DNA of 64,000 bases, from assembly GCA_035353335.1 (NCBI GenBank), contig DAOPZJ010000004.1, positions 15,555 through 79,554 of the forward strand, read 5' to 3'. A program made the translations under genes and the position numbers. This DNA comes from Oscillospiraceae bacterium. GTDB lineage: Bacteria; Bacillota; Clostridia; Oscillospirales; JAKOTC01. Shown one piece after another: positions 221 through 44,635 of the stretch. Below the pieces are notes generated by a model. It was not told the DNA's origin. It made no database searches and was given only the letters and a program-made list of their open reading frames with translations. How positions within the stretch are numbered: the first letter of the stretch is position 1; the number at the start of each line of letters is the position of its first letter.

Positions 221-1123
221 TCAAATTTGCATAACCTCCGCCATCAGATTTGCCATTTTCTTCAGGTTGTTGATATAATCAGCGTTAAGCGGTTCAAGCT
301 GAATGGTCTTTCCGCCGATTTCTTCGGCGAATGCGGCGGATTGGCTGCTGTCGATCTCACTCTGATAAAAGATCGCTTTGATGTTTTCGGCTTTTGCAAA
401 GTCGATGACCTCCTGCAGGTGTTGTGCGGTGGCTTCTTTGCCCTCTTCCTCGAGTGCAACCATCGTCAGCCCGTAATCATCGGCAAGATAGCCGAAAGCG
501 GGGTGAAAGACCACGAATTTCTTCATAGTCAAATTTGTAAAAGTCGTCTTAAGTTGGGTGTCCAAATCATCGAGCTGCGCAAGATATGCGGTTGCATTTT
601 GTTCGTAAACCGACGCATTTTCGGGGTCGAGTGCCGACATCTCACGTGCGATGGCCGATACCATAACCTTGACGCGTTTCGGTGAAAGCCAGATGTGCGG
701 ATCGCGCTCACCGGCTTCAAAAGTCCGGTCGGGATAGACCGCCGCGGTCTCATCGGACAGCGCGACCACTTTGACCGTGTTTTTAATATTTGAGAGGATA
801 TATGCCGATTCAATCGGAACGCCGATTGAAAAATAAATCGAGGCCTGTTCCAACCGCTGCATGGTATCGGGTTTCGGCTCGTAATTCTCGGGACTGCTTC
901 CCGGCGGCACCAACGTTACGACGTCGGCGAGATCGCCGCAGACGGCTTGTACAAAAGTCGCTTCGGGCACGATCGTGACGGCGACAATGGGCTTACCGGG
1001 TTGTGCGGATTCCGAAGAAGATGTCTTCGGCGCTTTTGCGCAGGCCGCAGTTAACAGTAATAAAACTATGAGAATGGCGATGATCAATCGGGAGACACCG
1101 TGAGTTGATTTCCGCTTCGGCAT
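221..1123 (-). CDS. Metal ABC transporter substrate-binding lipoprotein (ZnuA/TroA family)
   Basis: ORF 221..1153. The likely start is the internal ATG at 1123, preceded by GGAGG. It has a signal peptide with a lipobox-like LLTAAC. The family-typical layout is visible ([12 protein letters not shown]..., [30 protein letters not shown]). Confidence 0.85.
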
Positions 1124-1363
1124 AGAACCTCCATAGATGCAAATCATTTGCATTTATTATAATTGACACAATCCGTTAAGTCAATACATATTCGGGAGAT
1201 TTCTTTATTGAAGATTCATTATATCCGATTGAAAATTCCAAAAATCTTGAGATTTTAATATCAGTTTTACATGTCGTATGATATTCTTTTAACAGAAGGG
1301 AACGGATTGGTTTCCTTCTCAAAGTGAAATTTAACTTATATTCATATCAAGAGGAGTAGTTCT

Positions 1364-2719
1364 ATGAATCCCAAAGAATTATTATTTTCGGTTTTGAGAC
1401 ACGAGACGGTAAACCAGGTGCCGTGGGTGCCGTTTGCCGGAGTGCATGCCGGGAAACTCGTCGGTTATGACGCACAAGAAGTGCTTACCGATGGCGATAA
1501 GCTCTTCAAAGCGCTCTCCGAAGCCAACCGCCTATATAAACCCAACGGCCAGCCCGTTGTCTTCGATTTGCAGATCGAAGCCGAGATTTTGGGCTGCGAA
1601 CTGGTCTGGACCAAAGACGGCCCGCCGTCGGTCAAGACCCATCCGCTCGCCGAGACCAAACAGATCCCCTGCCGCTGCACTTTGCCCGACGAGACCGACG
1701 GGCGCATTCCGATGGTGCTTGACGTGATGCGGCGCATGAAAAAAGAATTCGGTGATACTACGGCACTCTACGGCCTGATCTGCGGCCCGTTTACATTGGC
1801 CTCCCATCTGCGCGGCAGCGAAATCTTTATGGATATGTTCGACGACGAGGAATATGTGAAACAGCTGCTTGTTTATTGCAACGACGCCGCAAAGCGTATG
1901 ACCGACATGTATATCGCGGCGGGTATGGACGTGATCGCCGTCGTCGACCCGATGGTCTCGCAGGTCTCTTCGGCGCATTTTGAAGAATTTTTGAGCGCCC
2001 CGTTTTCCGAATTGTTTGCCTACATCCGCGCCAAGAACGTCTTTTCTTCGCTCTTTGTGTGCGGCGACGCCACCAAAAATATCGATGTCATGTGCAAGAC
2101 CAACCCCGACTCGATCTCGATTGACGAAAATGTCAACATTGTGACCGCTAAACATATCGCCGACCACTATAATATCACAATCGGCGGAAATATCCCGCTG
2201 ACGACCGTGATGCTGCACGGCACTCAGCAGGACAACATGAAGTGCGTCATCGACATCATCGACAGCGTCGAAAGCAAGAAGAACCTGATTATCGCCCCGG
2301 GCTGCGACATGCCTTATAATGTCCCCGCGGAAAACGCCATCGGCGTGACGCAGGCGGTTTTGCAAACCGAAGAAACACGTAAAATGATTGCGAATTATGT
2401 CGCGGTCAAAGATAAAATCGAGGTCACTCTGCCGGATTACGCCAACCTTAAAAAACCGCTTCTTGAAGTGTTTACACTCGATTCGGCAACCTGCGCGGCC
2501 TGCGGCTACATGAAGGAAGCCGCGCAAAAAGCCAAAGAACACTTCGGCGATAAGATCGATATGGTTGAATATAAATATACGATCAAGGAAAATATCGCGC
2601 GCTGCATCAAATTGGGTGTCAAGAACCTGCCGTCGATCTACATCAACGGACAGCTCAAGTTCTCGTCGATCATCCCGAGCCGTGAGGAACTCTTTGGTGC
2701 AATTGAATCGGTGATGTGA
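1364..2719 (+). CDS. Uroporphyrinogen-decarboxylase (URO-D/MtaA-like) family protein fused to a C-terminal thioredoxin-fold domain with CAAC motif
   Basis: 451 aa. The N-terminal ~350 aa resemble the URO-D/methylcobamide methyltransferase family (PWVPFAGVHAG, DPMVSQVS, IIAPGCDMPYN). The last ~85 aa (LEVFTLDSATCAACGYM...NLPSIYINGQLKF) resemble small MTH895-type thioredoxin-like proteins. Confidence 0.7.
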   Translation: MNPKELLFSVLRHETVNQVPWVPFAGVHAGKLVGYDAQEVLTDGDKLFKALSEANRLYKPNGQPVVFDLQIEAEILGCELVWTKDGPPSVKTHPLAETKQIPCRCTLPDETDGRIPMVLDVMRRMKKEFGDTTALYGLICGPFTLASHLRGSEIFMDMFDDEEYVKQLLVYCNDAAKRMTDMYIAAGMDVIAVVDPMVSQVSSAHFEEFLSAPFSELFAYIRAKNVFSSLFVCGDATKNIDVMCKTNPDSISIDENVNIVTAKHIADHYNITIGGNIPLTTVMLHGTQQDNMKCVIDIIDSVESKKNLIIAPGCDMPYNVPAENAIGVTQAVLQTEETRKMIANYVAVKDKIEVTLPDYANLKKPLLEVFTLDSATCAACGYMKEAAQKAKEHFGDKIDMVEYKYTIKENIARCIKLGVKNLPSIYINGQLKFSSIIPSREELFGAIESVM

Positions 2720-2751
2720 TATAATACAGTCAAAAAGGGGGTGCGCGAGAT

Positions 2752-3669
2752 ATGACCGGACTCTATCTGATCACCGGCTTTCTCGGCGCGGGCAAGACTG
2801 TATTTTTAAAGGGCTTTATCCGGCGCAGTCCCAATATCCGTTTGAAAATCATTGTCAATGAGTTCGGAAAAGAGGGCATTGACGGCGCGTTGATCAGTGA
2901 GACAGGCGCAAAAGTAGAGGAGATCAGCAACGGCTCGATCTTTTGCACCTGCCGCATCGACCAATTCGAAAACGCGCTTATCAAAGCAACTGCCGATAAA
3001 CCGGAATTGATTTTGGTCGAGGCCTCGGGCCTTTCCGACCCGACTTCGATGCAGGTGATTTTGAAGCAGGAGCGTTTTTCGGAAATTGACTATCTCGGGT
3101 GCATCTGCCTCGTCGATCCCAAGACCATTCAAAAAGTGCTCGCGGGCGTGCGCGTCGGCATCAAGCAGCTCGAAGCCGCCGATCTGGTTTTGGTCAACAA
3201 AGCCGATACGGTCTCCGAGCAAGTTCTTTGCGAAACCGAAGCGTTGCTTCGGGATTTACGTCCCGATGTGCGGATTCACCGGACAACCTTCGGGCGGATT
3301 GAGCCGGAATGGTTACAAAATATCCGTAATGGCAAAGAGACCGGCGGTATAACTTATCATCTGAAAGACGTGGGCTTACAAAAGCTGACGATTACAATCA
3401 AGGACTCAATGAGTTACTCGCAGTTCGGTTACTTTCTTGCGGGGTTCGCATCATTCACTTTCAGAGTCAAGGGTATTGTTCTGCTCGAAGGTAAGCTCTC
3501 GTTAGTAGACTGTGTGGGCGAAAAGATATCAATCACCCCGTATTCGGGAGAAGCCGCACATCCCAATAAAATCGTTGCGCTGGCCGGGGCGGGTATGCCG
3601 ATGGAGAAAAAGGTTCAGGAAGCGGCTAAAAATCATTCGGAACACATCGAAGAAATCGAATGGGATTAA
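2752..3669 (+). CDS. CobW/COG0523-family G3E P-loop GTPase (putative metallochaperone), atypical metal motif
   Basis: GFLGAGKT Walker A, IVNEFG, LVEASGLSDP and VLVNKAD motifs are present. The canonical GCxCC motif is replaced by NGSIFCTC. Confidence 0.8.
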   Translation: MTGLYLITGFLGAGKTVFLKGFIRRSPNIRLKIIVNEFGKEGIDGALISETGAKVEEISNGSIFCTCRIDQFENALIKATADKPELILVEASGLSDPTSMQVILKQERFSEIDYLGCICLVDPKTIQKVLAGVRVGIKQLEAADLVLVNKADTVSEQVLCETEALLRDLRPDVRIHRTTFGRIEPEWLQNIRNGKETGGITYHLKDVGLQKLTITIKDSMSYSQFGYFLAGFASFTFRVKGIVLLEGKLSLVDCVGEKISITPYSGEAAHPNKIVALAGAGMPMEKKVQEAAKNHSEHIEEIEWD

Positions 3670-3681
3670 CAGCAATATCGT

Positions 3682-3714
3682 AAACGGCGGCAGGATTCCT
3701 GCCGCCGTTTTTGT
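3682..3714 (+). terminator. Rho-independent terminator after the COG0523 gene
   Basis: Perfect 12-bp stem AACGGCGGCAGG / CCTGCCGCCGTT with loop ATTC, followed by TTTTG. Confidence 0.75.
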
Positions 3715-3742
3715 CGACAAGTAAAAACGGGTATGGTATAAT
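3714..3742 (+). promoter_or_regulatory. Sigma-70-type promoter candidate for the 3827 gene
   Basis: TCGACA, 17-nt spacer, then TGgTATAAT (extended -10). Confidence 0.45.
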
Positions 3743-3826
3743 GAGGACATTCGAGAAAGATGGTCTAAAGTGTGGTTTAAAAATTAAATCCGGTTTTAAA
3801 GTCTTTGTGAGAAAGGTTAAAGAATC

Positions 3827-4789
3827 ATGAAAAATTATATGGATAATTTGAAAACCGGAAACCAGAAGCCCGGTAAAGAGATCAATAAAAAAGGAATGTT
3901 GGACATCGGCATGGTGGAAACCACCCCGGTCGTTTGGAAAGATCGGCTGTATCGTTTTGAATGGGTTCGTAACAACGAATGGGGCGGCGGTTATTGGAAT
4001 AATCAAACCAATCACGGCTATTTCCGTTTTACCGATATGGAGACGGAGGAGGTCACGCCTGCCTTCGGCGTGGATTATGCGTTCGGCAGCGCCTATATAA
4101 AACAGGCATCGGAAGGAGATACCGCTTATGTCTACGGTGTTCAGGGAAAAGGCGGCGGAAACCGTCTCGATGTTTTTCGGTCGCAGGATTTAATAAGCTG
4201 GGAGTCCAAAAAGGTTTTTGAATTTCCCGAAAGTTGGTCTTTATTTAACACCTCCGTCTGCAAAGGCAAAGACGGCTATGTGATGGCGCTCGAAATCGGC
4301 AGCCCGAAAGAAATTTGCGGGGCACCTTTTACCGTTGTATTTGCAGAATCCAAAAATTTAATCGACTGGACCATGATGCCGGTGGAAGATCATATCTATA
4401 CCAAAGAGCGTTATTCGGCCTGCCCGGTGATCCGGTTTGTCGAAGGTTGGTATTATATCATCTATCTGGAGAGCATCCCCGGTTACCGATGGGTGCCCTA
4501 TATCGTCCGCACGGAGGACTTCGTGAATTTCGAAATGGGAATTAAAAATCCGGTGATGGTTTTTAATGCTCAGGACAAAGTGGTTCAGCGCCCGGAGAAG
4601 TTTTCCGCCGACCAGTTAGAGTACATCAAAAACGCGGTGGACAGCAACAACAGCGATATCGACTTATGCGAATACCGCGGAAAGACCGTTATCCTGTACA
4701 GCTGGGGCAATCAGTTGGGCAAGGAGTTTTTGGCCGAAGCCGAATATGACGGGCCGATGGATGACTTTTTAAAATCGTTCTTTAATTGA
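3827..4789 (+). CDS. Hypothetical protein, possibly a five-bladed beta-propeller glycosidase-like fold
   Basis: 320 aa. The motifs SQDLISWES and GWYYIIYLE resemble blade signatures of GH32/43/130-type propellers. No catalytic motif was recognised with certainty. Confidence 0.4.
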   Translation: MKNYMDNLKTGNQKPGKEINKKGMLDIGMVETTPVVWKDRLYRFEWVRNNEWGGGYWNNQTNHGYFRFTDMETEEVTPAFGVDYAFGSAYIKQASEGDTAYVYGVQGKGGGNRLDVFRSQDLISWESKKVFEFPESWSLFNTSVCKGKDGYVMALEIGSPKEICGAPFTVVFAESKNLIDWTMMPVEDHIYTKERYSACPVIRFVEGWYYIIYLESIPGYRWVPYIVRTEDFVNFEMGIKNPVMVFNAQDKVVQRPEKFSADQLEYIKNAVDSNNSDIDLCEYRGKTVILYSWGNQLGKEFLAEAEYDGPMDDFLKSFFN

Positions 4790-11113: not shown

Positions 11114-11141
11114 GAGCCGGTTTCCTTTCGAAAACCGGCTC
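11114..11141. terminator. Hairpin terminator between the convergent CN-hydrolase and heliorhodopsin genes
   Basis: GAGCCGGTTT cctttcg AAAACCGGCTC. The T-run is on the minus-strand side (CAATTTTTAT), so it is best placed to terminate the heliorhodopsin transcript. Confidence 0.55.
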
Positions 11142-11156
11142 TCATATTGTAATATA

Positions 11157-11183
11157 GGGCGGAATGAGGGCATCCCGCCCTAC
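11157..11183 (-). repeat. REP-like element, copy 2
   Basis: The minus strand reads GTAGGGCGGGATGCCCTCATTCCGCCC. Confidence 0.6.
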
Positions 11184-11209
11184 TTATCGCTTATATAATG
11201 ATCTTTATT

Positions 11210-11989
11210 TTACGGCTGCATGGCGCCGAACAGGACCAGCCAGGCCAAAACGGACTTTGCTGCCAAGCTGAGAACGATGTAGATGCGCTCGCCGTGCAGA
11301 TAATCCACCCACTTGCCGACGCGTTTATACTGTAAAATCATATTGATCGGGAAGGTGTTGAACGCCACGAAATAAGTGCCGACAATCGCCCAGACAAACC
11401 ACGGAACCATGTCGTAATTGCCGGTTCCGGTCATGTACAGAATGATCACAACCCACGGCGCGATACCGGCGATCGAGCCCCAGACAAACGGACCCCAGTT
11501 GACCTTTTTCTTCTCCGCACCGGCGTTCAGCTGCTCCATCACGAGGCCGAACAGATTCATGGTAGCGTTGACAACGAAAATCAGAATCAAAGTGGCGATG
11601 TCGTAGATGCCGAACAGGGTGCTGATGAGCACGATCATAATCGACGAGCTCAGGGCGTATTCGAACCAGCGGAATTTGTTGATGCCTTTTTGCAGATCGC
11701 TGACATAAGTCTTGCCATTCAGGACGATGAGGGCGTGGGCGGCCGCCGAGATCAGCAAAAACACGGCGACCAGAATACCGAAGGGCAATTTGAAAAGCTC
11801 CCTGCTCGCCGATTCGAGCGACTGCGTGGCGGGGTTATAGGTGAGGTAATTCTGTGTAATTACCGGTTGAAACTCGGCGATTTTTTGAATCACATTCGTG
11901 GCGAGAAACAGCATAGCGATACCCTGAACCAGATGAAACGCACCCATAATCAGGTTGAAGCGTTTGAGTTTTGTAAACGTGTTTTCCAT
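11210..11989 (-). CDS. Heliorhodopsin (type-1-like 7-TM retinal protein with inverted topology)
   Basis: 259 aa. FRWFEYALSSSIMIVLI and GERIYIVLSLAAKSVLAW closely match what I recall of heliorhodopsin 48C12 (FRWVEYSLSSSVMIVLI; GERAYIVLSLVAKSALAW). The Schiff-base Lys (K245), counterion Glu (E110) and His19/His85 are all present. An AAAGGAGG RBS precedes the ATG. Confidence 0.85.
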   Translation of the reverse strand: MENTFTKLKRFNLIMGAFHLVQGIAMLFLATNVIQKIAEFQPVITQNYLTYNPATQSLESASRELFKLPFGILVAVFLLISAAAHALIVLNGKTYVSDLQKGINKFRWFEYALSSSIMIVLISTLFGIYDIATLILIFVVNATMNLFGLVMEQLNAGAEKKKVNWGPFVWGSIAGIAPWVVIILYMTGTGNYDMVPWFVWAIVGTYFVAFNTFPINMILQYKRVGKWVDYLHGERIYIVLSLAAKSVLAWLVLFGAMQP

Positions 11990-12050
11990 TTAGACGGCCT
12001 CCTTTAACGGTTTTATGGCTTGATTTTAATAGGAAAAACACATTTTATCC

Positions 12051-12063
12051 GTGATTTTATCAC
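12051..12063 (-). promoter_or_regulatory. Extended -10 (TGaTAAAAT) embedded in palindrome GTGATAAAATCAC, upstream of the heliorhodopsin gene
   Basis: The minus strand reads TTGTGATAAAATCACGG about 65 nt upstream of the ATG. The -35 is weak. Confidence 0.35.
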
Positions 12064-12088
12064 AATATGGAAAGGATTTTAGCAAAAA

Positions 12089-12116
12089 TAAAAGCGCCTA
12101 ACGACGCTTTTTTATT
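12089..12116 (-). terminator. Terminator after nadE, separating it from the heliorhodopsin gene
   Basis: AAAAGCG / CGCTTTT hairpin with T-runs on both strands. Confidence 0.55.
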
Positions 12117-12152
12117 GATTTTTCTTTTCGAGCACCCTCCATAAAGGGAAAT

Positions 12153-14120
12153 TTATTGAATCTGTTTTTCAAGAGCAGTAATACGCTTAAGCCAAGAAGC
12201 TGCCGAGGCGTCAGAGGGCATTCTCCAGTCGCCGCGCGGGGACAGGGAGACGCTGCCCACTTTGACCCCGTCGGGCAGGCAGCTTCGTTTATACTGCTGC
12301 GCAAAGAACCGCGTGTAGAAAACCCGCAGCCACTTTAAAATGGTCTTGTTGTCAAACTCGCCCCTGAACGCTAATGCGGCCAGATAAAAAATCTTTTCGG
12401 GTTCGAAACCGAAGCGCATGACATAGTAAAGGAAGAAATCATGCAGCGCATAAGGGCCGACGATGTCCTCGGTCTGCTGTGCGATTTTGCCGTCTGCATT
12501 GGGCGGGAGCAGTTCTGGGCTGATCGGCGTGTCAAGAATGTCACGGAGCACTTCGGTGCTTTTTTCAAAGATGTTATATTGGATAATGCCATCGATCATC
12601 CATCGAATCAGCGTCTTCGGAATACTGCCGTTGACATTGTACATGCTCATATGGTCGGCATTGTAGGTACACCAGCCGAGTGCGAGCTCGCTGAGGTCAC
12701 CGGTTCCGACGACAAGCCCTCCGACTTCGCCGGCGTAATCCATCAACACCTGGGTGCGCTCGCGGGCCTGCGTGTTTTCAAAGGTGAGGTCGTGCTTGTT
12801 GATATCGTGGCCGATACTTTGATAGTGCAGCTCGCAGGCCTGCTTGATGTCGATCTCTTTGCTTGTGACGCCGAGGGTCTTCATCAGTTCAAGCGAGTTT
12901 TGATAGGTGCGGTCCGAAGTGCCGAAACAGGGCATGGTAATGCCGATTACATCCGTCAGCGGGCGTTTTAATTCCCGCATGACCTCGGCGCTGACCAGCA
13001 GGGCAAGCGTGGAATCGAGCCCGCCGGAGACGCCGACGACGGCCTTGCCCTTGGTATGCTCAAGGCGCTTTTTCAGCCCCGCGACCTGCATTCGGAAGAT
13101 GTTCAGACAGCGTTCGAGGCGATCTTTTTGGGTGGGTGGGACAAACGGCAGTTTGCGCAGGGGATATAAGGTGCCGTCGCCGTGGAAGTCACTTTTTGAA
13201 TCTGTAATATCAATAGTGCGAACAGGTTCGCTGACCCCGTAGAGGTCGACGCTGTCTTTGAAGCTCTTGTTTTTCATGCGGTCTGCGCGGATTCTGCCGA
13301 GGTCGATGTCCGAAACAAGTAAATAATCGGTGTCGATCAGCTGCTCATTTTCGCGGAGCAGCGCGCCGTTTTCCGCGATCAGCGAATGACCCGAATAGAT
13401 CAGATCGGTGGTTGACTCGGTGCCTCCCGCGGAACAGTAGACATAACCGCAGAGGGTGCGGCCCGACTGCTGCTTGACGAGATCACGGCGGTATTCTCTC
13501 TTGGCGATGATCTCGTTGCTGCAGGAGATATTCACAATCAATTCCGCGCCTCCGAGCGCTAAAAACGTGCTCGGCGGGATCGGCACCCAGAGGTCTTCGC
13601 AGATCTCGACGCCTATACGGAGGCGGTTATTCAAATTGAAAACGAGGCCTCTTCCGATGGGGATGTCGTAGATCTCGGAGATACCAAATAGCGAAGAGGA
13701 CAAAACTTTTTCTTTGAGGTCGCAGGAAGTCGAAAACCATCTGCGCTCGTAAAATTCGCTGTAGTTGGGCATAAAGGTCTTCGGCACAATCCCTTCGATC
13801 CTGCCATGATTGATCACAATCGCGCAGTTATAGAGCTGATTTTGAACGGTGACCGGCATTCCGACCACGGTAATAAAATCCCAAGAACGCGACGCCTCGA
13901 GAAGTTTAATAAGCGCTTTATTCGCTTCGTCGAGCAGCGTTTTTTGAAAGAACAGATCAGCGCAGGTATACCCGGAGATGCAGAGTTCCGGGAACACCAA
14001 CAGATCGGCTTTTGCCTCCTGGGCCTGTTTGGCTTTATTTAAAATTTGAGACAGGTTATATTCGACATCGCCCACGCCGACATTCGGGACGGCGCTCGCG
14101 GCTCGGATAAAATCAAACAT
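12153..14120 (-). CDS. nadE: Glutamine-dependent NAD+ synthetase (N-terminal CN-hydrolase domain plus C-terminal NAD synthase domain)
   Basis: 655 aa. LLVFPELCISGY and GVEICEDLW mark the glutaminase domain. VVGVSGGLDSTLAL is the PP-loop SGGxDS motif. Confidence 0.9.
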   Translation of the reverse strand: MFDFIRAASAVPNVGVGDVEYNLSQILNKAKQAQEAKADLLVFPELCISGYTCADLFFQKTLLDEANKALIKLLEASRSWDFITVVGMPVTVQNQLYNCAIVINHGRIEGIVPKTFMPNYSEFYERRWFSTSCDLKEKVLSSSLFGISEIYDIPIGRGLVFNLNNRLRIGVEICEDLWVPIPPSTFLALGGAELIVNISCSNEIIAKREYRRDLVKQQSGRTLCGYVYCSAGGTESTTDLIYSGHSLIAENGALLRENEQLIDTDYLLVSDIDLGRIRADRMKNKSFKDSVDLYGVSEPVRTIDITDSKSDFHGDGTLYPLRKLPFVPPTQKDRLERCLNIFRMQVAGLKKRLEHTKGKAVVGVSGGLDSTLALLVSAEVMRELKRPLTDVIGITMPCFGTSDRTYQNSLELMKTLGVTSKEIDIKQACELHYQSIGHDINKHDLTFENTQARERTQVLMDYAGEVGGLVVGTGDLSELALGWCTYNADHMSMYNVNGSIPKTLIRWMIDGIIQYNIFEKSTEVLRDILDTPISPELLPPNADGKIAQQTEDIVGPYALHDFFLYYVMRFGFEPEKIFYLAALAFRGEFDNKTILKWLRVFYTRFFAQQYKRSCLPDGVKVGSVSLSPRGDWRMPSDASAASWLKRITALEKQIQ

Positions 14121-28588: not shown

Positions 28589-28677
28589 GGAGAGGTATCG
28601 AAGAGGTCATAACGGGGCTGACTCGAAATCAGTTTGGGGGCAACTCCACGTGGGTTCGAATCCCACCCTCTCCGCCA
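28589..28677 (+). tRNA. tRNA-Ser (anticodon CGA), class II with long variable arm, CCA encoded
   Basis: Acceptor GGAGAGG/CCTCTCC. Anticodon stem-loop GCTGA-CTCGAAA-TCAGT. Variable arm TGGGG-GCAA-CTCCA. T arm GTGGG-TTCGAAT-CCCAC. 3' end GCCA. Confidence 0.85.
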
Positions 28678-39014: not shown

Positions 39015-39106
39015 AGAAGAGGAAAGTGATAAACTCACTGATTATTTGGATCGGTATTCGTTAATATAAAAATATAAAAGCGGGAGAACCTGGAGGATTG
39101 GGCTTT

Positions 39107-39925
39107 ATGAAGCGTTACATAATTTTTATATTAGCAGTGGTATTGTTATTTAGCAGCTGTGCTGATTTGGGGCTGAAACAACCGGATGGGATCAGCTCGG
39201 CATCGCTAAAATCGAGCCGGGTTTCGGTTCAAAGCGAGCAATCTCCGGAAGCGGTTGGGGCGAGCCAAAATTCGAATCAACAGCAGAGCAGTCAATTTAA
39301 AAGCAGCCGACAATCCTCGGTAACCTCGGAGAGCATGGCGGACGCGATTTCTTCAGCCACCCTAAGCCGTTACCGCGAAAACGAAGTCACGGAATACGAG
39401 GGATTTCGGCTGGATCCCGCCGTCGGATCGAGAGATAATTCGATTAAGGGGATACAATATGTTGATCCCGAGGGGTTTGTGATAAAAATTGATGGTTTGG
39501 TCGATAAAACTATTGAACTGGATATCGCAAAAGTGCGGGCGATGCTGGATTATCAGCGGCTGGTGACGCTGCATTGCGTCGAAGGCTGGGAAGCCACGAT
39601 CTTATGGCGCGGGGCTTTGCTTGCCGACTTGATAGATTTGGCGGGAGCAAAATCAACTGCCGACACGGTGATTTTTGAAGCGGTGGACGGGTATACCACC
39701 TCACTTCCGCTGGAATATGTGCTTTCGAAAAAATTGATTTTGGCTTATGAAGCCAACGGATTGGATCTGCCGCCCGATATGGGATATCCGTTCATCGTGG
39801 TGGCCGAAGCCAAGCGCGGGTATAAATGGGCTCGCTGGGTCAACCGCATAACACTGTCCGATGATTTAAATTACCGGGGTTACTGGGAGAGCCGTGGATT
39901 TTCAAATAAGGGAGATCTAAAATAA
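39107..39925 (+). CDS. Lipoprotein with sulfite-oxidase/MsrP (YedY)-like molybdopterin-binding domain
   Basis: Lipobox LFSSC, a Ser/Gln-rich linker, then LHCVEGWEATILWRG and GYKWARWVNRITL. Confidence 0.7.
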   Translation: MKRYIIFILAVVLLFSSCADLGLKQPDGISSASLKSSRVSVQSEQSPEAVGASQNSNQQQSSQFKSSRQSSVTSESMADAISSATLSRYRENEVTEYEGFRLDPAVGSRDNSIKGIQYVDPEGFVIKIDGLVDKTIELDIAKVRAMLDYQRLVTLHCVEGWEATILWRGALLADLIDLAGAKSTADTVIFEAVDGYTTSLPLEYVLSKKLILAYEANGLDLPPDMGYPFIVVAEAKRGYKWARWVNRITLSDDLNYRGYWESRGFSNKGDLK

Positions 39926-39963: not shown

Positions 39964-39983
39964 ACATCAAAAATATTTGATGT
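39964..39983. promoter_or_regulatory. ArsR operator-like palindrome 1 (ACATCAAAAATATTTGATGT)
   Basis: A perfect 20-bp palindrome starting 7 nt after the -10 box. Confidence 0.55.
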
Positions 39984-39996
39984 GAGGTGAACGATC

Positions 39997-40311
39997 TTGG
40001 AAGATAAAAATGAAAAGCAAGCAAGGGTTTTCAAGGCATTCTGTGATGAAAACCGTCTGCGGATATTGGAACTGCTGCGCGGCGGAGAAAAGTGCGCCTG
40101 TGTGCTGATGGATAAACTCGATATGAGCCAGTCGGCGATCTCGTATCACATGAAGGTTCTGGTCGAGTCGGGCATCGTCGAGAGCCGCCAGGAGGGCAAG
40201 TGGACGCATTACAAACTCAGTGAAACGGGCAGTGCGCAAGCCGTTGAATTGTTGAGAGAACTGACTACACCTAACACGGTTTGTGATAAAGAAACCTGCT
40301 GCCAAAAATAA
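39997..40311 (+). CDS. arsR: ArsR/SmtB family metalloregulator
   Basis: TTG start with a GAGGTG RBS. GEKCACVLMDKLDMSQSAISYHMKVL carries a CxC metal site and the HTH. Confidence 0.85.
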   Translation: MEDKNEKQARVFKAFCDENRLRILELLRGGEKCACVLMDKLDMSQSAISYHMKVLVESGIVESRQEGKWTHYKLSETGSAQAVELLRELTTPNTVCDKETCCQK

Positions 40312-40351
40312 AGCCATCGCAATGATCCGCGGATGGCTTTTATCAAAACCA

Positions 40352-40373
40352 ATACATCAAAATTATTTGATAT
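40352..40373. promoter_or_regulatory. ArsR operator-like palindrome 2 (ATACATCAAAATTATTTGATAT)
   Basis: Near-duplicate of palindrome 1. It lies between arsR and the permease gene, just after the hairpin AAAGCCATC/GATGGCTTT (40310..40340). Confidence 0.5.
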
Positions 40374-40387
40374 GAAAGGGTAGCGCA

Positions 40388-41401
40388 ATGCAAGTATTAA
40401 AAGCTATTTGGGACTTTATACAAACCCAAATTCTCGGTATGAAGTGGTTAAATGACCTCATCGGGAGCGGGCTTTCCGCCCTTGGATTGGATCTTGAAAA
40501 CCGGTGGGTCAACAGCGCACAGTTTTTCCTTTATGATGTAATTAAAATCACGGTGCTGCTGTGCCTGTTGATTTTTGTGATCAGCTACATCCAGAGCTAT
40601 TTTCCGCCGGAGCGCAGTAAAAAGATTCTCGGACGCTTTCACGGCATCGGTGCAAATACCGTTGCAGCGCTGCTCGGTACGGTTACGCCGTTTTGTTCGT
40701 GTTCGTCCATTCCACTGTTCATCGGCTTTACCTCCGCGGGCCTGCCGGTCGGCGTGACGTTTTCGTTTCTGATTTCCTCGCCGATGGTCGACTTAGGTTC
40801 CTTGGTGCTGTTGATGAGCATTTTCGGGGTTAAGGTTGCAATAATCTATGTTTTGTTCGGACTGATTGTCGCGGTTGCAGGCGGTACGCTGATTGAAAAA
40901 CTGCATATGGAGAGATATGTGGAGAGCTTTATTCTGACCGCCGGAAGCGTGGACATCGAATCGCCCGATCTGACTAAAAGAGACCGGCTGGTTTACGCCA
41001 AAGAACAGATGTTCGCGACTTTTAAAAAGGTGATCCTGTACATTTTAATCGGCGTTGCGGTCGGTGCTGTCATTCACAATTGGATTCCCGAGCAATGGAT
41101 CAGCGCCGCACTCGGCAGCAACAACCCCTTCGGCGTGATCATTGCGACATTGATCGGCGTCCCGATGTACGCGGATATTTTTGGCACGATTCCGATTGCC
41201 GAAGCCCTGTTTGCAAAAGGTGCGCAATTAGGTGTGATCCTGTCTTTTATGATGGCCGTTACAACGCTGTCGCTTCCGTCGATGATCATGCTTCGTAAAG
41301 CGGTGAAACCCAAACTGCTGGCACTGTTTATCGCAATTTGTACCGTCGGCATCATCCTGGTCGGATATCTGTTCAACGCACTTCAGACACTGATTATATA
41401 A
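40388..41401 (+). CDS. arsP: COG0701-type permease (ArsP-like organoarsenical efflux permease)
   Basis: 337 aa, polytopic. The TPFCSCSSIPLF motif is characteristic of this permease family. Confidence 0.7.
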   Translation: MQVLKAIWDFIQTQILGMKWLNDLIGSGLSALGLDLENRWVNSAQFFLYDVIKITVLLCLLIFVISYIQSYFPPERSKKILGRFHGIGANTVAALLGTVTPFCSCSSIPLFIGFTSAGLPVGVTFSFLISSPMVDLGSLVLLMSIFGVKVAIIYVLFGLIVAVAGGTLIEKLHMERYVESFILTAGSVDIESPDLTKRDRLVYAKEQMFATFKKVILYILIGVAVGAVIHNWIPEQWISAALGSNNPFGVIIATLIGVPMYADIFGTIPIAEALFAKGAQLGVILSFMMAVTTLSLPSMIMLRKAVKPKLLALFIAICTVGIILVGYLFNALQTLII

Positions 41402-41423
41402 AAACTTATCGGAGGAAAAGAAA

Positions 41424-41714
41424 ATGGCTAAAAAGTGGTATCCTGTTGTCAATTATCTGATTTGCGAGGACTGCGGCACCTGTGTTGCAAAGTGCCCGCA
41501 CGGCGTGTATGACGTCAAAAAGGCGCCGTCGCCGGTTGTGATAAGCCCCGATGAATGCGTCGATCACTGCCACGGCTGCGGCAACCGCTGTCCCGTCGGT
41601 GCGATTACTTATGTCGGCGACGACACCGGCTGGACGCCGCCGAACAAAAAAGCGGCGGCTGAAAGTTCATGCGGCTGCGACGGCGGCAACAGCAGAGGCG
41701 GCTGTGATTGCTGA
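41424..41714 (+). CDS. Small 4Fe-4S dicluster ferredoxin-like protein with Cys-rich tail
   Basis: CEDCGTCVAKCP and CVDHCHGCGNRCP motifs. Tail SSCGCDGGNSRGGCDC. Confidence 0.7.
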   Translation: MAKKWYPVVNYLICEDCGTCVAKCPHGVYDVKKAPSPVVISPDECVDHCHGCGNRCPVGAITYVGDDTGWTPPNKKAAAESSCGCDGGNSRGGCDC

Positions 41715-41740
41715 CAATAAATTAAAACGAAAAGGAGCGA

Positions 41741-42085
41741 GTGATTATGTCAATCTTTAATAAGAAAAAGGAAGAATCCTGCTGCTGTGGAAACTGCGAC
41801 GCAAAAAGTATGGAACAAGCAGAGAAGGCAAAAACCGAAGGCGCGAGTGTAAAAGTGCTTGGAAGCGGCTGCGCCAAATGCAATCAGCTCGAAGCGTCGG
41901 TCAAAGAGGCCTTGTTGTTGCTCGGAATGGATGCGGCGATCGACCATGTGACCGATTTCGCCCAGATTGCCGCATACGGCGTCATGAGCACGCCCGCACT
42001 GGTCGTGGACGGCAAGGTCGTTTCTTACGGCAAGGTGTTGAAGACCGAAGAAGTCATCAAAATTTTACAGAAAGTCAGGGGCTAA
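41741..42085 (+). CDS. Thioredoxin-fold protein (MTH895/redox-active disulfide protein 2-like) with N-terminal CCCGNC extension
   Basis: VKVLGSGCAKCNQLE...STPALVVDGKVVSYGKV. The upstream 35 aa contain CCCGNCD. Confidence 0.75.
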   Translation: MIMSIFNKKKEESCCCGNCDAKSMEQAEKAKTEGASVKVLGSGCAKCNQLEASVKEALLLLGMDAAIDHVTDFAQIAAYGVMSTPALVVDGKVVSYGKVLKTEEVIKILQKVRG

Positions 42086-42087
42086 AA

Positions 42088-42291
42088 ATGAAAGCTGTCA
42101 TTGATAAGAGGAAGTGCTCTTCCGACCTGAGGATGTGCAAGCCGATGAAAGAATGTCCCACCGGTGCGATTTCGTGGATTGAAGACGACGACGAGCCGCT
42201 CGGTTCCCGCATGGAGATCGATGAGGGTAAATGCACCGGCTGCGGGCTCTGTGTCGAGTTGTGCTGCGGAAACTGCATCGAAGTAAAGTAA
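42088..42291 (+). CDS. Small 4Fe-4S-binding-domain protein
   Basis: The ATG at 42088 lies within track ORF 41878..42291. MKAVIDKRKCSS...CPTGAI...CTGCGLCVELCCGNC. Confidence 0.6.
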   Translation: MKAVIDKRKCSSDLRMCKPMKECPTGAISWIEDDDEPLGSRMEIDEGKCTGCGLCVELCCGNCIEVK

Positions 42292-42335
42292 AACAAATAT
42301 AACACGTTATAACTGCGAACCTTAAGGAGTTATTT

Positions 42336-43124
42336 ATGAGTGGCAAAGAGGAAACCAGAGAGCAAATCCGAAAAAAGTATTCGAAAATTGCGTTGAAGGG
42401 CGGCGAAGATTGCGGCTGCAGTTCGGGATGCTGCGGTGCGAAACCCCGCCTTGACGTTAAGGAAATCACCAAAAATCTCGGATACTCCGATGATGACCTT
42501 TCAAATATGCCCAATCAGGTAAATATGGGCCTCGGCTGCGGGAATCCTCTTGCGATCGCCTCACTCAAAGAGGGCGAGACGGTTCTCGATTTGGGCAGCG
42601 GGGGCGGTTTCGACTGCTTTTTGGCCAGGAGAAAAGTCGGTGAATCCGGGCATGTCATCGGCATCGATATGACGCCCGAAATGATCAAGCTGTCGCGTGA
42701 AAACGCCCGAAAAAGCAAAGTCGCGAATGTGGAGTTTCGCCTTGGCGAAATTGAGCATATGCCGGTTGCGGACGGCGTCGTGGATGTGATTATCTCAAAC
42801 TGCGTGATCAATTTATCGGTTGAAAAAGAAAAGGTGTTCAAAGAGGCCTACCGGGTTTTGAAAACCGGAGGGAGAATCTGCGTTTCCGACGTCGTTGCGA
42901 CTGCCGAACTGCCCGAGGAATTGAAAAAGAACATCGCCATGCTGACGGGCTGCATTGCGGGAGCGGAATATGTTGAAAACCTCAGAGCGATGTTAACAAA
43001 CGCCGGTTTTAAAAACATTCGAATGACCCCGAAAGACAACAGCAGAGAAATCCTGTCCTCTTGGGCGCCCGGAAAAGGCGTCGAAAATTACGTGGCTTCC
43101 TATATCATCGAGGCGGAAAAATAA
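42336..43124 (+). CDS. arsM: Arsenite S-adenosylmethionine methyltransferase
   Basis: N-terminal CGCSSGCCG, SAM motif VLDLGSGGGFDCF, and ISNCVINL. Confidence 0.85.
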   Translation: MSGKEETREQIRKKYSKIALKGGEDCGCSSGCCGAKPRLDVKEITKNLGYSDDDLSNMPNQVNMGLGCGNPLAIASLKEGETVLDLGSGGGFDCFLARRKVGESGHVIGIDMTPEMIKLSRENARKSKVANVEFRLGEIEHMPVADGVVDVIISNCVINLSVEKEKVFKEAYRVLKTGGRICVSDVVATAELPEELKKNIAMLTGCIAGAEYVENLRAMLTNAGFKNIRMTPKDNSREILSSWAPGKGVENYVASYIIEAEK

Positions 43125-43136
43125 TAATTTTCGAAA

Positions 43137-44240
43137 TTGTTCGGTATTCAAACACGAATCGGAGATGGTGTTGTGGATAAAATAAAAAAACAGGGCATCG
43201 GATTTTTTGAAAAATATCTGACGGTTTGGGTGCTGTTATGTATGGCGGCGGGTATCTTGATCGGCAAATTTTTGCCCGGAATCCCCGGTTTTCTCGAAAA
43301 AATTCAATATGCGGGGCAAAATATCCCGATTGCCGTCCTCATTTGGATTATGATCTACCCGATGATGATGAAGATTGATTTTCAGTCCATAAAAAATGTG
43401 AGAAAGAACCCGCTCGGATTGGTGATTTCATCCGGAAACAGCTGGCTGGTAAAACCGTTTCTGATGTTCGGTCTGTCGTCTCTCTTTTTCTATGTCATCT
43501 TCAAAGCGTTTATCCCGCATGATTTGGCGCAAAGCTATGTGACAGGCGCCGTATTGCTGGGCGTTGCCCCGTGTACAGCAATGGTTTTTGTGTGGAGCAA
43601 CCTCACAAAGGGCGATCCCGCGCACACGCTGGTGCAGGTTTCCGTCAACGATCTGTTGATCATTGTTTTGTTTGTCCCGCTGACAACTCTACTGCTCGGA
43701 ATCAATCAAAGTCAAATCCCTTGGGATACACTGATTTTTTCCATCGTTCTCTTTGTCGTAATTCCTTTGTCGGCAGGCGCTGTAACGAGGAGTTTAATGA
43801 TCAGGAAAAAAGGTTTGGAATATTTCAACGAAAAGTTTGTTCCGAAATTCGACGGGATTACCACTTCCGGTTTGTTGCTGACGCTCGTTATCATTTTTAC
43901 ATTTCAAGGCGATGTGATTCTGGAAAATCCGTTTTATGTGCTCTTGATCGCCGTTCCGCTGATTCTTCAAAATATCATCTCCGCGACGATTGCCTATCAG
44001 TTGTGCAGGTGGGCGAAACTGCCTCATAACATTTCCGCGCCCGCCTCTCTGATCGCCGCTTCCGATTTCTTTGAATTGTCGGTGGCTGTCGCGATTTCGC
44101 TGTTCGGGCCGGATTCCCCGGTGGTGCTTGTCTGCACGGTCGGCGTACTGACAGAAGTTCCGGTGATGCTGCTGCTTGTGAAATTTATCAACAAAACAAA
44201 GCATTGGTTTCCCGAGACCGGCAAGGAAACAGCAAAATGA
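43137..44240 (+). CDS. acr3: ACR3-family arsenite efflux transporter
   Basis: FFEKYLTVWV, IAVLIWIMIYPMMMKIDF and GVAPCTAMV motifs. An alternative GTG start at 43173 has a GGAG RBS. Confidence 0.9.
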   Translation: MFGIQTRIGDGVVDKIKKQGIGFFEKYLTVWVLLCMAAGILIGKFLPGIPGFLEKIQYAGQNIPIAVLIWIMIYPMMMKIDFQSIKNVRKNPLGLVISSGNSWLVKPFLMFGLSSLFFYVIFKAFIPHDLAQSYVTGAVLLGVAPCTAMVFVWSNLTKGDPAHTLVQVSVNDLLIIVLFVPLTTLLLGINQSQIPWDTLIFSIVLFVVIPLSAGAVTRSLMIRKKGLEYFNEKFVPKFDGITTSGLLLTLVIIFTFQGDVILENPFYVLLIAVPLILQNIISATIAYQLCRWAKLPHNISAPASLIAASDFFELSVAVAISLFGPDSPVVLVCTVGVLTEVPVMLLLVKFINKTKHWFPETGKETAK

Positions 44241-44635
44241 AGAAAGTCGCTTTTATCTGCGTCCATAACTCCTGCCGAAGTCAAATCGCCGAGGCGCTCG
44301 GAAAGCATTTCGCCGCAGATGTTTTTCAGAGTTATTCCGCAGGCACGGAAGTAAAAGACCGCATTAATCCCGACACCGTTCGGCTGATGAAGCAGCTTTA
44401 TGGAATCGACATGGAGTTGACCCAGCGTCCCAAGCTGCTCGCCGATCTGCCGCCGGTGGATGTGGTCATCACGATGGGCTGCAATGTCGAGTGTCCTTAT
44501 CTGCCGTGTAAACGTCGGGAGGATTGGGGACTCGACGATCCTACAGGCAAATCGGATGATCATTTCATTACTGTAATCAAAACGATTGAATCAAAAATCA
44601 TTTCTTTAAAGACGGAACTTGGGGGGCGTTCATGA
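44237..44635 (+). CDS. arsC: Arsenate reductase, low-molecular-weight phosphatase (thioredoxin-coupled) type
   Basis: MKKVAFICVHNSCRSQIAEA carries the CX5R P-loop. ATGA overlap with the acr3 stop. Confidence 0.85.
   Translation: MKKVAFICVHNSCRSQIAEALGKHFAADVFQSYSAGTEVKDRINPDTVRLMKQLYGIDMELTQRPKLLADLPPVDVVITMGCNVECPYLPCKRREDWGLDDPTGKSDDHFITVIKTIESKIISLKTELGGRS

Follow-up and report, generated by a model that had tools for sequence, protein, structure and literature searches.

A heliorhodopsin with intact retinal-binding residues beside nadE in an Oscillospiraceae bacterium, and the large clade of anaerobic and facultative bacteria to which its sequence assigns it

A locus that pointed to an interaction partner would be useful for working out the physiological role of heliorhodopsins (HeRs). 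In the stretch of DNA analysed here (64,000 nucleotides, referred to as the window), an HeR gene has nadE as its upstream neighbour on the same strand. A first-pass annotation, made from the sequence, had speculated on a link between light and NAD or nitrogen metabolism. We asked whether the gene is a genuine HeR, how it came to lie beside nadE and whether its surroundings reveal a partner. The two genes are:

11210..11989, minus strand: HeR coding sequence, 259 aa, with Schiff-base lysine K245, counterion E110 and histidines H19 and H85
12153..14120, minus strand: nadE, glutamine-dependent NAD+ synthetase (Pfam CN_hydrolase and NAD_synthase)

The window protein matched the Pfam family Heliorhodopsin (PF18761) with an E value of 2.3e-94 and 315.7 bits (cut-off 26.7 bits). 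This HMM comparison, proposed with the first-pass annotation as a check, covered the profile at full length (1-242 of 242 positions). A search of PDB sequences returned heliorhodopsins only, including TaHeR (6is6, E 1e-57) and 48C12 (6su3, E 2e-49), to which overall identity is 46.5% and 47%, respectively. In the phmmer alignment, where the chain numbering of 48C12 is its native numbering, H19, H85, E110 and K245 correspond to H23, H80, E107 and K241 of 48C12, and E110 is aligned to E107 inside the motif FRW(F/V)EY. Two peptide blocks, FRWFEYALSSSIMIVLI (residues 106-122) and GERIYIVLSLAAKSVLAW (residues 233-250), had been described by eye as near-identical to 48C12. Counted from the same alignment, 14 of 17 and 15 of 18 residues are identical. 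At the level of sequence, these comparisons confirm the initial identification of a genuine, intact HeR that has kept its retinal-binding residues.

An AlphaFold2 (AF2) model computed from 24 close homologues reached a moderate confidence (pLDDT 68.6) and displayed seven long helices (residues 2-51, 68-90, 105-125, 131-154, 166-189, 197-222 and 227-257), in agreement with the hydropathy profile, which also fits seven transmembrane helices. The first of these is the first membrane helix, extended by the model into the low-confidence external loop ECL1 (residues 39-65, pLDDT <50). When the model was compared with the PDB using Foldseek, the best nine matches were all HeR structures (TM 0.70-0.76). 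Lysine and arginine residues are distributed unevenly, with 11 in the N-terminus and ICL1-3, which are predicted to be cytoplasmic, versus 3 in the external loops. The predicted topology thus fits the inverted orientation with a cytoplasmic N-terminus, as had been expected.

The stop codon of nadE (12153) and the start codon of the HeR gene (11989) are separated by a gap of 163 nt. The following signals were located in this gap and downstream of the HeR gene:

12090..12111, minus strand: intrinsic terminator after nadE, from the terminator scan; 9-bp stem, then U tract UUUUAUUUU
12051..12063, minus strand: palindrome GTGATAAAATCAC, which contains TGATAAAAT, a candidate extended -10
11998..12005, minus strand: ribosome-binding site (RBS) AAAGGAGG, read from the sequence, 8 nt 5' of the HeR ATG
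11156..11181, minus strand: GC-rich hairpin, initially called a 'REP-like' element; RNA fold -21.9 kcal/mol
11114..11141, minus strand: hairpin with U tract, likely HeR terminator, from the terminator scan

The terminator that had been postulated after nadE was found at 12111..12090, with an RNA fold of -11.8 kcal/mol (z -3.93). The proposed extended -10 within a palindrome stood in part. The palindrome does hold a TG-n-TAAAAT element (TG at 12062-12061, TAAAAT at 12059-12054), but a sigma-70 scan found no canonical -35/-10 pair upstream of the HeR gene, and no good -35 is present at 16-18 nt from the candidate -10. A plausible HeR promoter is therefore the candidate extended -10 itself. A conserved 8-mer or operator was sought in 76 upstream regions of HeR relatives, and RBS-like and A/T-rich words were all that emerged; 8-mers of the AAAGGAG type are the commonest upstream words. 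Downstream, the hairpin at 11141..11114 folds at -22.3 kcal/mol (z -7.2). It is kept in two relatives that lack the HeR (L092 and L093, described below) and on sequence comparison is assigned to the ancestral spacer between convergent genes. The downstream hairpin and the second element of the first-pass annotation were thus recovered, but its label of a REP-like repeat for the hairpin at 11156..11181 was rejected, this element being present in a single copy within the window; alignment and blastn boundaries show that its 3' part is common to the HeR-less relatives. An Rfam scan of the whole window at gathering thresholds returned one tRNA only (28589-28674) and no structured RNA near the HeR gene. 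Since one terminator lies upstream and another downstream, the gene most probably forms its own, stand-alone transcription unit; together with its own RBS, this makes the monocistronic arrangement suggested earlier probable.

Among homologues of NadE, which carry the name NAD+ synthase (glutamine-hydrolysing), the nearest ones on long contigs are those of L092 (84% identical) and L093 (81%). As in the window, where the HeR gene occupies the spacer between convergent nadE and a GFO/2-Hacid_dh/MR_MLE/CN_hydrolase operon, nadE of both contigs is convergent with a CN_hydrolase-MR_MLE-GFO operon, and the flanking proteins are 76-94% identical to their window counterparts. Between nadE and the CN_hydrolase operon, neither L092 nor L093 contains an HeR or an HeR remnant. 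Homology in blastn ends at window positions ~12141-12148 and restarts at ~11166-11179, which delimits one further feature:

11180..12140, minus strand: lineage-specific segment of ~0.96 kb, from blastn and alignment against L092 and L093

The segment carries the nadE-side terminator, the promoter region, the HeR gene and ~30 nt of 3' sequence, and it is absent from the relatives that share the flanking synteny. As these relatives are syntenic and yet HeR-less, the HeR gene of the window appears to sit on a lineage-specific segment of about 1 kb.

The same HeR protein, identical in sequence, was found on 13 contigs, including those of the NCBI MAG GCA_035403805.1, which is labelled Oscillospiraceae bacterium, and of two JGI metagenomes of digester samples (3300009692 and 3300025858). 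Pfam annotation took in nearly every gene called in the 64 kb, with about 8 ORFs lacking any match. The window encodes glycoside hydrolases and a polysaccharide lyase (GH88, heparinase II/III, GH2, GH31 and melibiase), in line with the fermenter-like surroundings noted at first, and their presence supports a polysaccharide-degrading member of the Clostridia as host. A xanthine-dehydrogenase-type operon, an arsenic-resistance-like cluster, fatty-acid synthesis genes and two-component systems were also annotated. Among the called genes of the window, no Pfam families of retinal or carotenoid synthesis (Blh, Crt), photolyases, or LOV, BLUF or B12 photoreceptors were detected, in agreement with the earlier reading. 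The GC3 of the HeR gene is 0.73, like that of neighbouring genes; a recent horizontal transfer into this genome was considered and rejected, GC and GC3 both matching the neighbours. The habitats of the host appear to be anaerobic and for the most part dark, and the use of a light sensor there is not obvious.

How widespread are such proteins? A protein database search yielded 4145 homologues of the window HeR at E<=1e-10, the best 120 of them 78-94% identical, and the clade motifs recur in at least 592 genome stretches. Carriers belong to the Clostridia, Erysipelotrichales, Bacilli, Izemoplasmatales, Acholeplasmataceae, Anaerolineae and Dehalococcoidia, and a few carrying MAGs are labelled Sumerlaeota or Thermotogaceae. 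By its sequence, the window HeR is accordingly placed in a very large clade whose carriers are anaerobes or facultative anaerobes from the Bacillota, the Chloroflexota and a few further phyla. Close homologues are also found in cultured organisms: Proteiniclasticum ruminis DSM 24773, Halolactibacillus alkaliphilus, Pelagirhabdus alkalitolerans and Peloplasma aerotolerans.

Across 78 species-level relatives, the equivalents of H19, H85, E110 and K245 are invariant (78/78). These four chromophore-related residues are among 116 of the 259 positions that are nearly invariant in the same species, and conservation is highest in TM3, TM6, TM7 and ICL3. Compared with the window gene, clade HeRs show a median pS of 0.85, that is, saturated synonymous sites, and a pN of 0.165; for comparisons with a finite dS, dN/dS is ~0.07. 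The GC3 of HeR genes tracks the GC content of the host (r 0.94) over a range of 26-62%. Low dN/dS and host-like GC3 together indicate that the HeR genes are old residents under strong purifying selection. Identity is not higher within classes (~0.76) than between phyla (~0.75-0.78), a comparison biased by the 80 loci being a top-scoring subset. Such flat identity points to past transfer between phyla, to saturation of the few free sites, or to both.

To survey the neighbourhoods, the ORFs lying up to 6 kb from the HeR gene at 81 loci were all clustered by single linkage. No general neighbour family emerged from these loci. The largest cluster, present at 17 of 81, is a mix of GGDEF proteins and response-regulator-like proteins of ~224 aa; the latter are paired with histidine kinases. 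Other recurrent neighbours are ABC ATPases (12 loci), a class II-type photolyase (6/81) and Dak2-DegV (6). Relatives never have fewer than 42 nt between the HeR gene and the gene upstream; at 31 of 76 loci these two are on opposite strands, and at 46 of 72 the gene that follows is convergent with the HeR gene. Clade HeRs are thus usually stand-alone genes without a universal neighbour, so that a partner must be found biochemically.

We consider it highly probable that the window gene encodes a canonical, functional HeR of this anaerobic clade, expressed as a stand-alone unit from the ~1-kb lineage-specific segment. By analogy with TfHeR, the Halolactibacillus HeR, 48C12 and TaHeR, the protein would take up exogenous all-trans-retinal; an exogenous source is suggested by the lack of a pathway in the window together with HeR-only genomes being mostly without one. 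Judging from its characterised relatives, it would absorb green light at ~540-550 nm and pass through a slow photocycle with a long-lived photointermediate and no net ion transport. The activated protein may then modulate a partner via its cytoplasmic face, as TfHeR, AbHeR and OcHeR do. In the clade HeRs, surface conservation peaks at ICL3 and TM6-TM7.

Which partner could this be? An unlikely but specific answer is that the protein works like TfHeR, by binding and stimulating a class II CPD photolyase whose gene lies in another part of the genome. A benefit in the form of better repair after occasional exposure to light or UV is similarly doubtful. TfHeR itself apparently falls within the window clade at ~79% identity, and in four clade loci (L046, L047, L055 and L083) the gene immediately upstream of the HeR gene is a divergent photolyase gene (PF00875), while two more loci (L033 and L062) have one nearby. 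However, these six are all that were found within 6 kb among the 81 clade loci, and the 64-kb window contains no photolyase. A photolyase encoded elsewhere is our best specific guess for a partner, and it is a long shot.

Somewhat less probable still is a conserved role of the clade HeRs that is independent of routine sunlight and is exerted through a housekeeping partner encoded elsewhere rather than by a neighbour. Most clade carriers are probably unable to make retinal. Since identities of 71-81% and invariant chromophore residues are maintained in hundreds of species, a sunlight-independent role is conceivable. One possibility would be an alarm for surface exposure, signalled by light and oxygen; another would be a sensor of exogenous retinoids or carotenoids. 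Many of the species that carry clade HeRs are obligate anaerobes living largely in the dark, for instance in digesters, sludge or groundwater.

It is very improbable that the HeR acts as a light-dependent regulator of the adjacent NadE, tying light to NAD and nitrogen metabolism in an independent re-creation of the helR-GS-NAD synthase linkage of Actinobacteria. The idea draws on the position of nadE directly upstream on the same strand; on AbHeR, which binds and regulates glutamine synthetase (GS; PMC9529153), confirming the statement in the first-pass annotation that an HeR modulates a glutamine-utilising enzyme; on the co-transcription of GS and NAD+ synthetase with HeR in Nanopelagicales; and on NAD+ synthetase being one of ten groups of frequent HeR neighbours (PMC8612252, PMC11109279). 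Immediate adjacency to any one single-copy gene is also rarely expected, with a probability of ~2/3000 per locus by a rough estimate. Against this, the 163-nt gap contains a terminator, no GS gene is present, and in the actinobacterial operons it is GS, not NAD synthase, that helR adjoins. Conservation of the neighbourhood argues in the same direction. In a survey with one genome per species, no NadE homologue was found within 6 kb of the HeR gene in any of the 80 best-scoring species-level loci (0/80), whose HeRs are 71-81% identical to that of the window. It was likewise absent from two closer contigs with HeRs of 83% identity, and within this HeR-locus survey the pairing occurred only in five contigs of the same species. 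The nearest nadE-syntenic relatives are HeR-less at this site, and an indel in the spacer between the convergent units therefore created the adjacency. Absence of the pairing in relatives had been named beforehand as a reason to abandon the light/NAD or nitrogen speculation, and it is what was found. The adjacency of nadE and the HeR gene is thus most probably accidental, the product of a lineage-specific insertion in the convergent spacer, and we judge nadE to lie outside the HeR system. The partner of the window HeR is not readable from the locus, and NadE is an unlikely one.

It is scarcely credible that the gene is a functionless passenger left decaying after horizontal transfer to a dark-living anaerobe. 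It is lineage-specific at its site and has no retinal pathway nearby, but its ORF is intact and preceded by a good RBS, none of the catalytic residues has been lost, codon GC3 is fully host-adapted, 13 contigs from several samples encode the identical protein and the dN/dS of the clade is ~0.07.

For the canonical HeR that we favour, the window locus consequently offers no real clue to its role, given that the adjacency to nadE stems from a lineage-specific insertion. This negative result is a guard against over-reading the synteny of one genome. What novelty is left lies at the level of the clade, in a tightly conserved retinal protein that persists in many anaerobes of dark habitats.

Among characterised systems, TfHeR of Trichococcus flocculiformis, a helper of class II CPD photolyase that acts by binding and stimulating the enzyme (PMC9769723), seems to be close to the window protein. 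The HeR of a Carnobacteriaceae MAG (L033) is 78.5% identical to the window HeR, starts with MKEITTEK and ends with MQP, the termini encoded by the cloning primers for TfHeR, and has a photolyase gene upstream on the same strand. As the termini coincide, TfHeR appears to belong to the window clade at ~79% identity, as judged through this proxy. Both proteins have the key residues and a similar length and come from bacteria of the sludge or digester type. However, TfHeR is encoded in an operon with the photolyase and a DUF2238 protein, whereas the window gene has neither and stands alone beside nadE; a class II CPD photolyase beside the HeR gene, the hallmark of the TfHeR type, does not occur within the 64 kb.

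A Halolactibacillus HeR expressed in E. coli binds retinal and has its absorption maximum at 545 nm (PMC7807009). The HeR of H. alkaliphilus (L052), which may differ from the published protein as the species is not stated there, is 75% identical to the window HeR, and the 545-nm protein probably belongs to the same clade. It comes from an alkaliphile of the Bacilli, the window HeR from an oscillospiracean anaerobe. With 48C12 and TaHeR (PDB 6su3, 6uh3 and 6is6) the window HeR has the fold and the H/H/E/K constellation in common, but relative to both, insertions have lengthened two loops of the window clade, the first external loop by 7 residues and the one joining helices 5 and 6 by 2-3. The hosts differ as well, that of 48C12 being a freshwater actinobacterium and that of TaHeR a Thermoplasmatales archaeon.

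NAD+ synthetase is a recurrent HeR neighbour in freshwater Actinobacteria, in the order helR-GS-NAD synthase; in the Nanopelagicales operon, whose genes are co-transcribed, GS follows helR at 25-36 nt and the next gap, to NAD synthase, is 61 nt (PMC8612252, PMC11109279). Given this recurrence, the adjacency in the window was not a priori meaningless. Both here and in the AbHeR-GS or Nanopelagicales systems, an HeR lies near an ATP-dependent enzyme of amidotransferase type that uses glutamine or ammonia, and NAD+ synthase is common to the Nanopelagicales operon and the window. In contrast to that operon, the window lacks GS, has a 163-nt gap with a terminator and shows an unconserved adjacency, so that neither co-transcription with GS and NAD+ synthase nor a conserved neighbourhood is seen; the two HeRs also belong to different clades. 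A further kind of partner is represented by OcHeR, which modulates an ABC transporter. Finally, Bulzu et al. described HeR clusters from anaerobic Firmicutes and from Anaerolineae/Chloroflexi in sediments and sludge, and HeR-only genomes that are mostly without a complete retinal pathway. Since HeRs of sludge and sediment anaerobes have thus already been described, the window gene adds a member to a known group.

The window-specific segment of about 0.96 kb that carries the heliorhodopsin (HeR) gene (11180..12140, minus strand) has an imperfect 15-nt direct repeat near its ends, the two copies being identical at 12 of 15 positions:

12105-12119, minus strand: direct-repeat copy ATCAATAAAAAAGCG, near one end of the segment
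11188-11202, minus strand: direct-repeat copy ATCATTATATAAGCG, near the other end

ATCATTATAAAA is present once in the spacers of the HeR-less relatives, which share the nadE synteny. The direct repeat may be a target-site duplication, or it may have arisen by chance in A/T-rich DNA.

When the palindrome in front of HeR was searched across the whole window at up to 2 mismatches, 7 matches were observed, against 1.8 expected. Among them is a copy with a single mismatch:

39026-39038, plus strand: GTGATAAACTCAC

This copy precedes an Oxidored_molyb gene (39107-39925) by ~70 nt, a distance similar to that between the palindrome and HeR. The copy could represent a shared operator, or simply A/T-rich promoter sequence. 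An arsenic-resistance-like cluster is located at ~39967-44635 and comprises an HTH_5 regulator, an ArsP_1 permease, ferredoxins, a thioredoxin, a methyltransferase, an SBF/Acr3-like carrier and a low-molecular-weight phosphatase. Directly upstream of nadE is an operon that is kept in the relative L091:

14377-18041, minus strand: xanthine-dehydrogenase-family operon (MoCoBD, FAD_binding_5 and 2Fe-2S subunits)

One complete Christensenellaceae chromosome (OY762278.1) carries two HeR copies of the clade of the window HeR:

2.07 Mb (L008): HeR copy, 80% identical to the window HeR
1.39 Mb (L016): HeR copy, 79% identical

Clade HeRs, 72-74% identical, were also found in metagenome-assembled genomes (MAGs) assigned to Sumerlaeota (L061, L065) and Thermotogaceae (L071), lineages not usually counted as monoderms. 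Such occurrences could be real (a Mesotoga HeR has been published) or could represent binning errors.

On two contigs whose HeR is 83% identical to that of the window, Amino_oxidase (PF01593) genes are situated just upstream of HeR:

714-4084 (contig L089): two Amino_oxidase genes
691-2262 (contig L090): one complete Amino_oxidase gene

A FecR-domain gene comes after them. The Amino_oxidase genes might encode CrtI-like carotenoid desaturases, in which case they would be relevant to chromophore supply.

In a more distant relative (L094), whose NadE is 70% identical to that of the window, a spore-photoproduct-lyase-family gene (PF20903, 3773-4786) directly follows nadE, in the position that HeR occupies in the window. 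Among the 81 clade loci surveyed, a DNA photolyase (PF00875) was encoded close to HeR in six:

L046, L047, L055, L083: photolyase directly upstream of HeR, divergent
L033, L062: photolyase in the vicinity of HeR

These six loci reproduce, within the clade of the window HeR, the published association of photolyase with TfHeR, the heliorhodopsin of Trichococcus flocculiformis.
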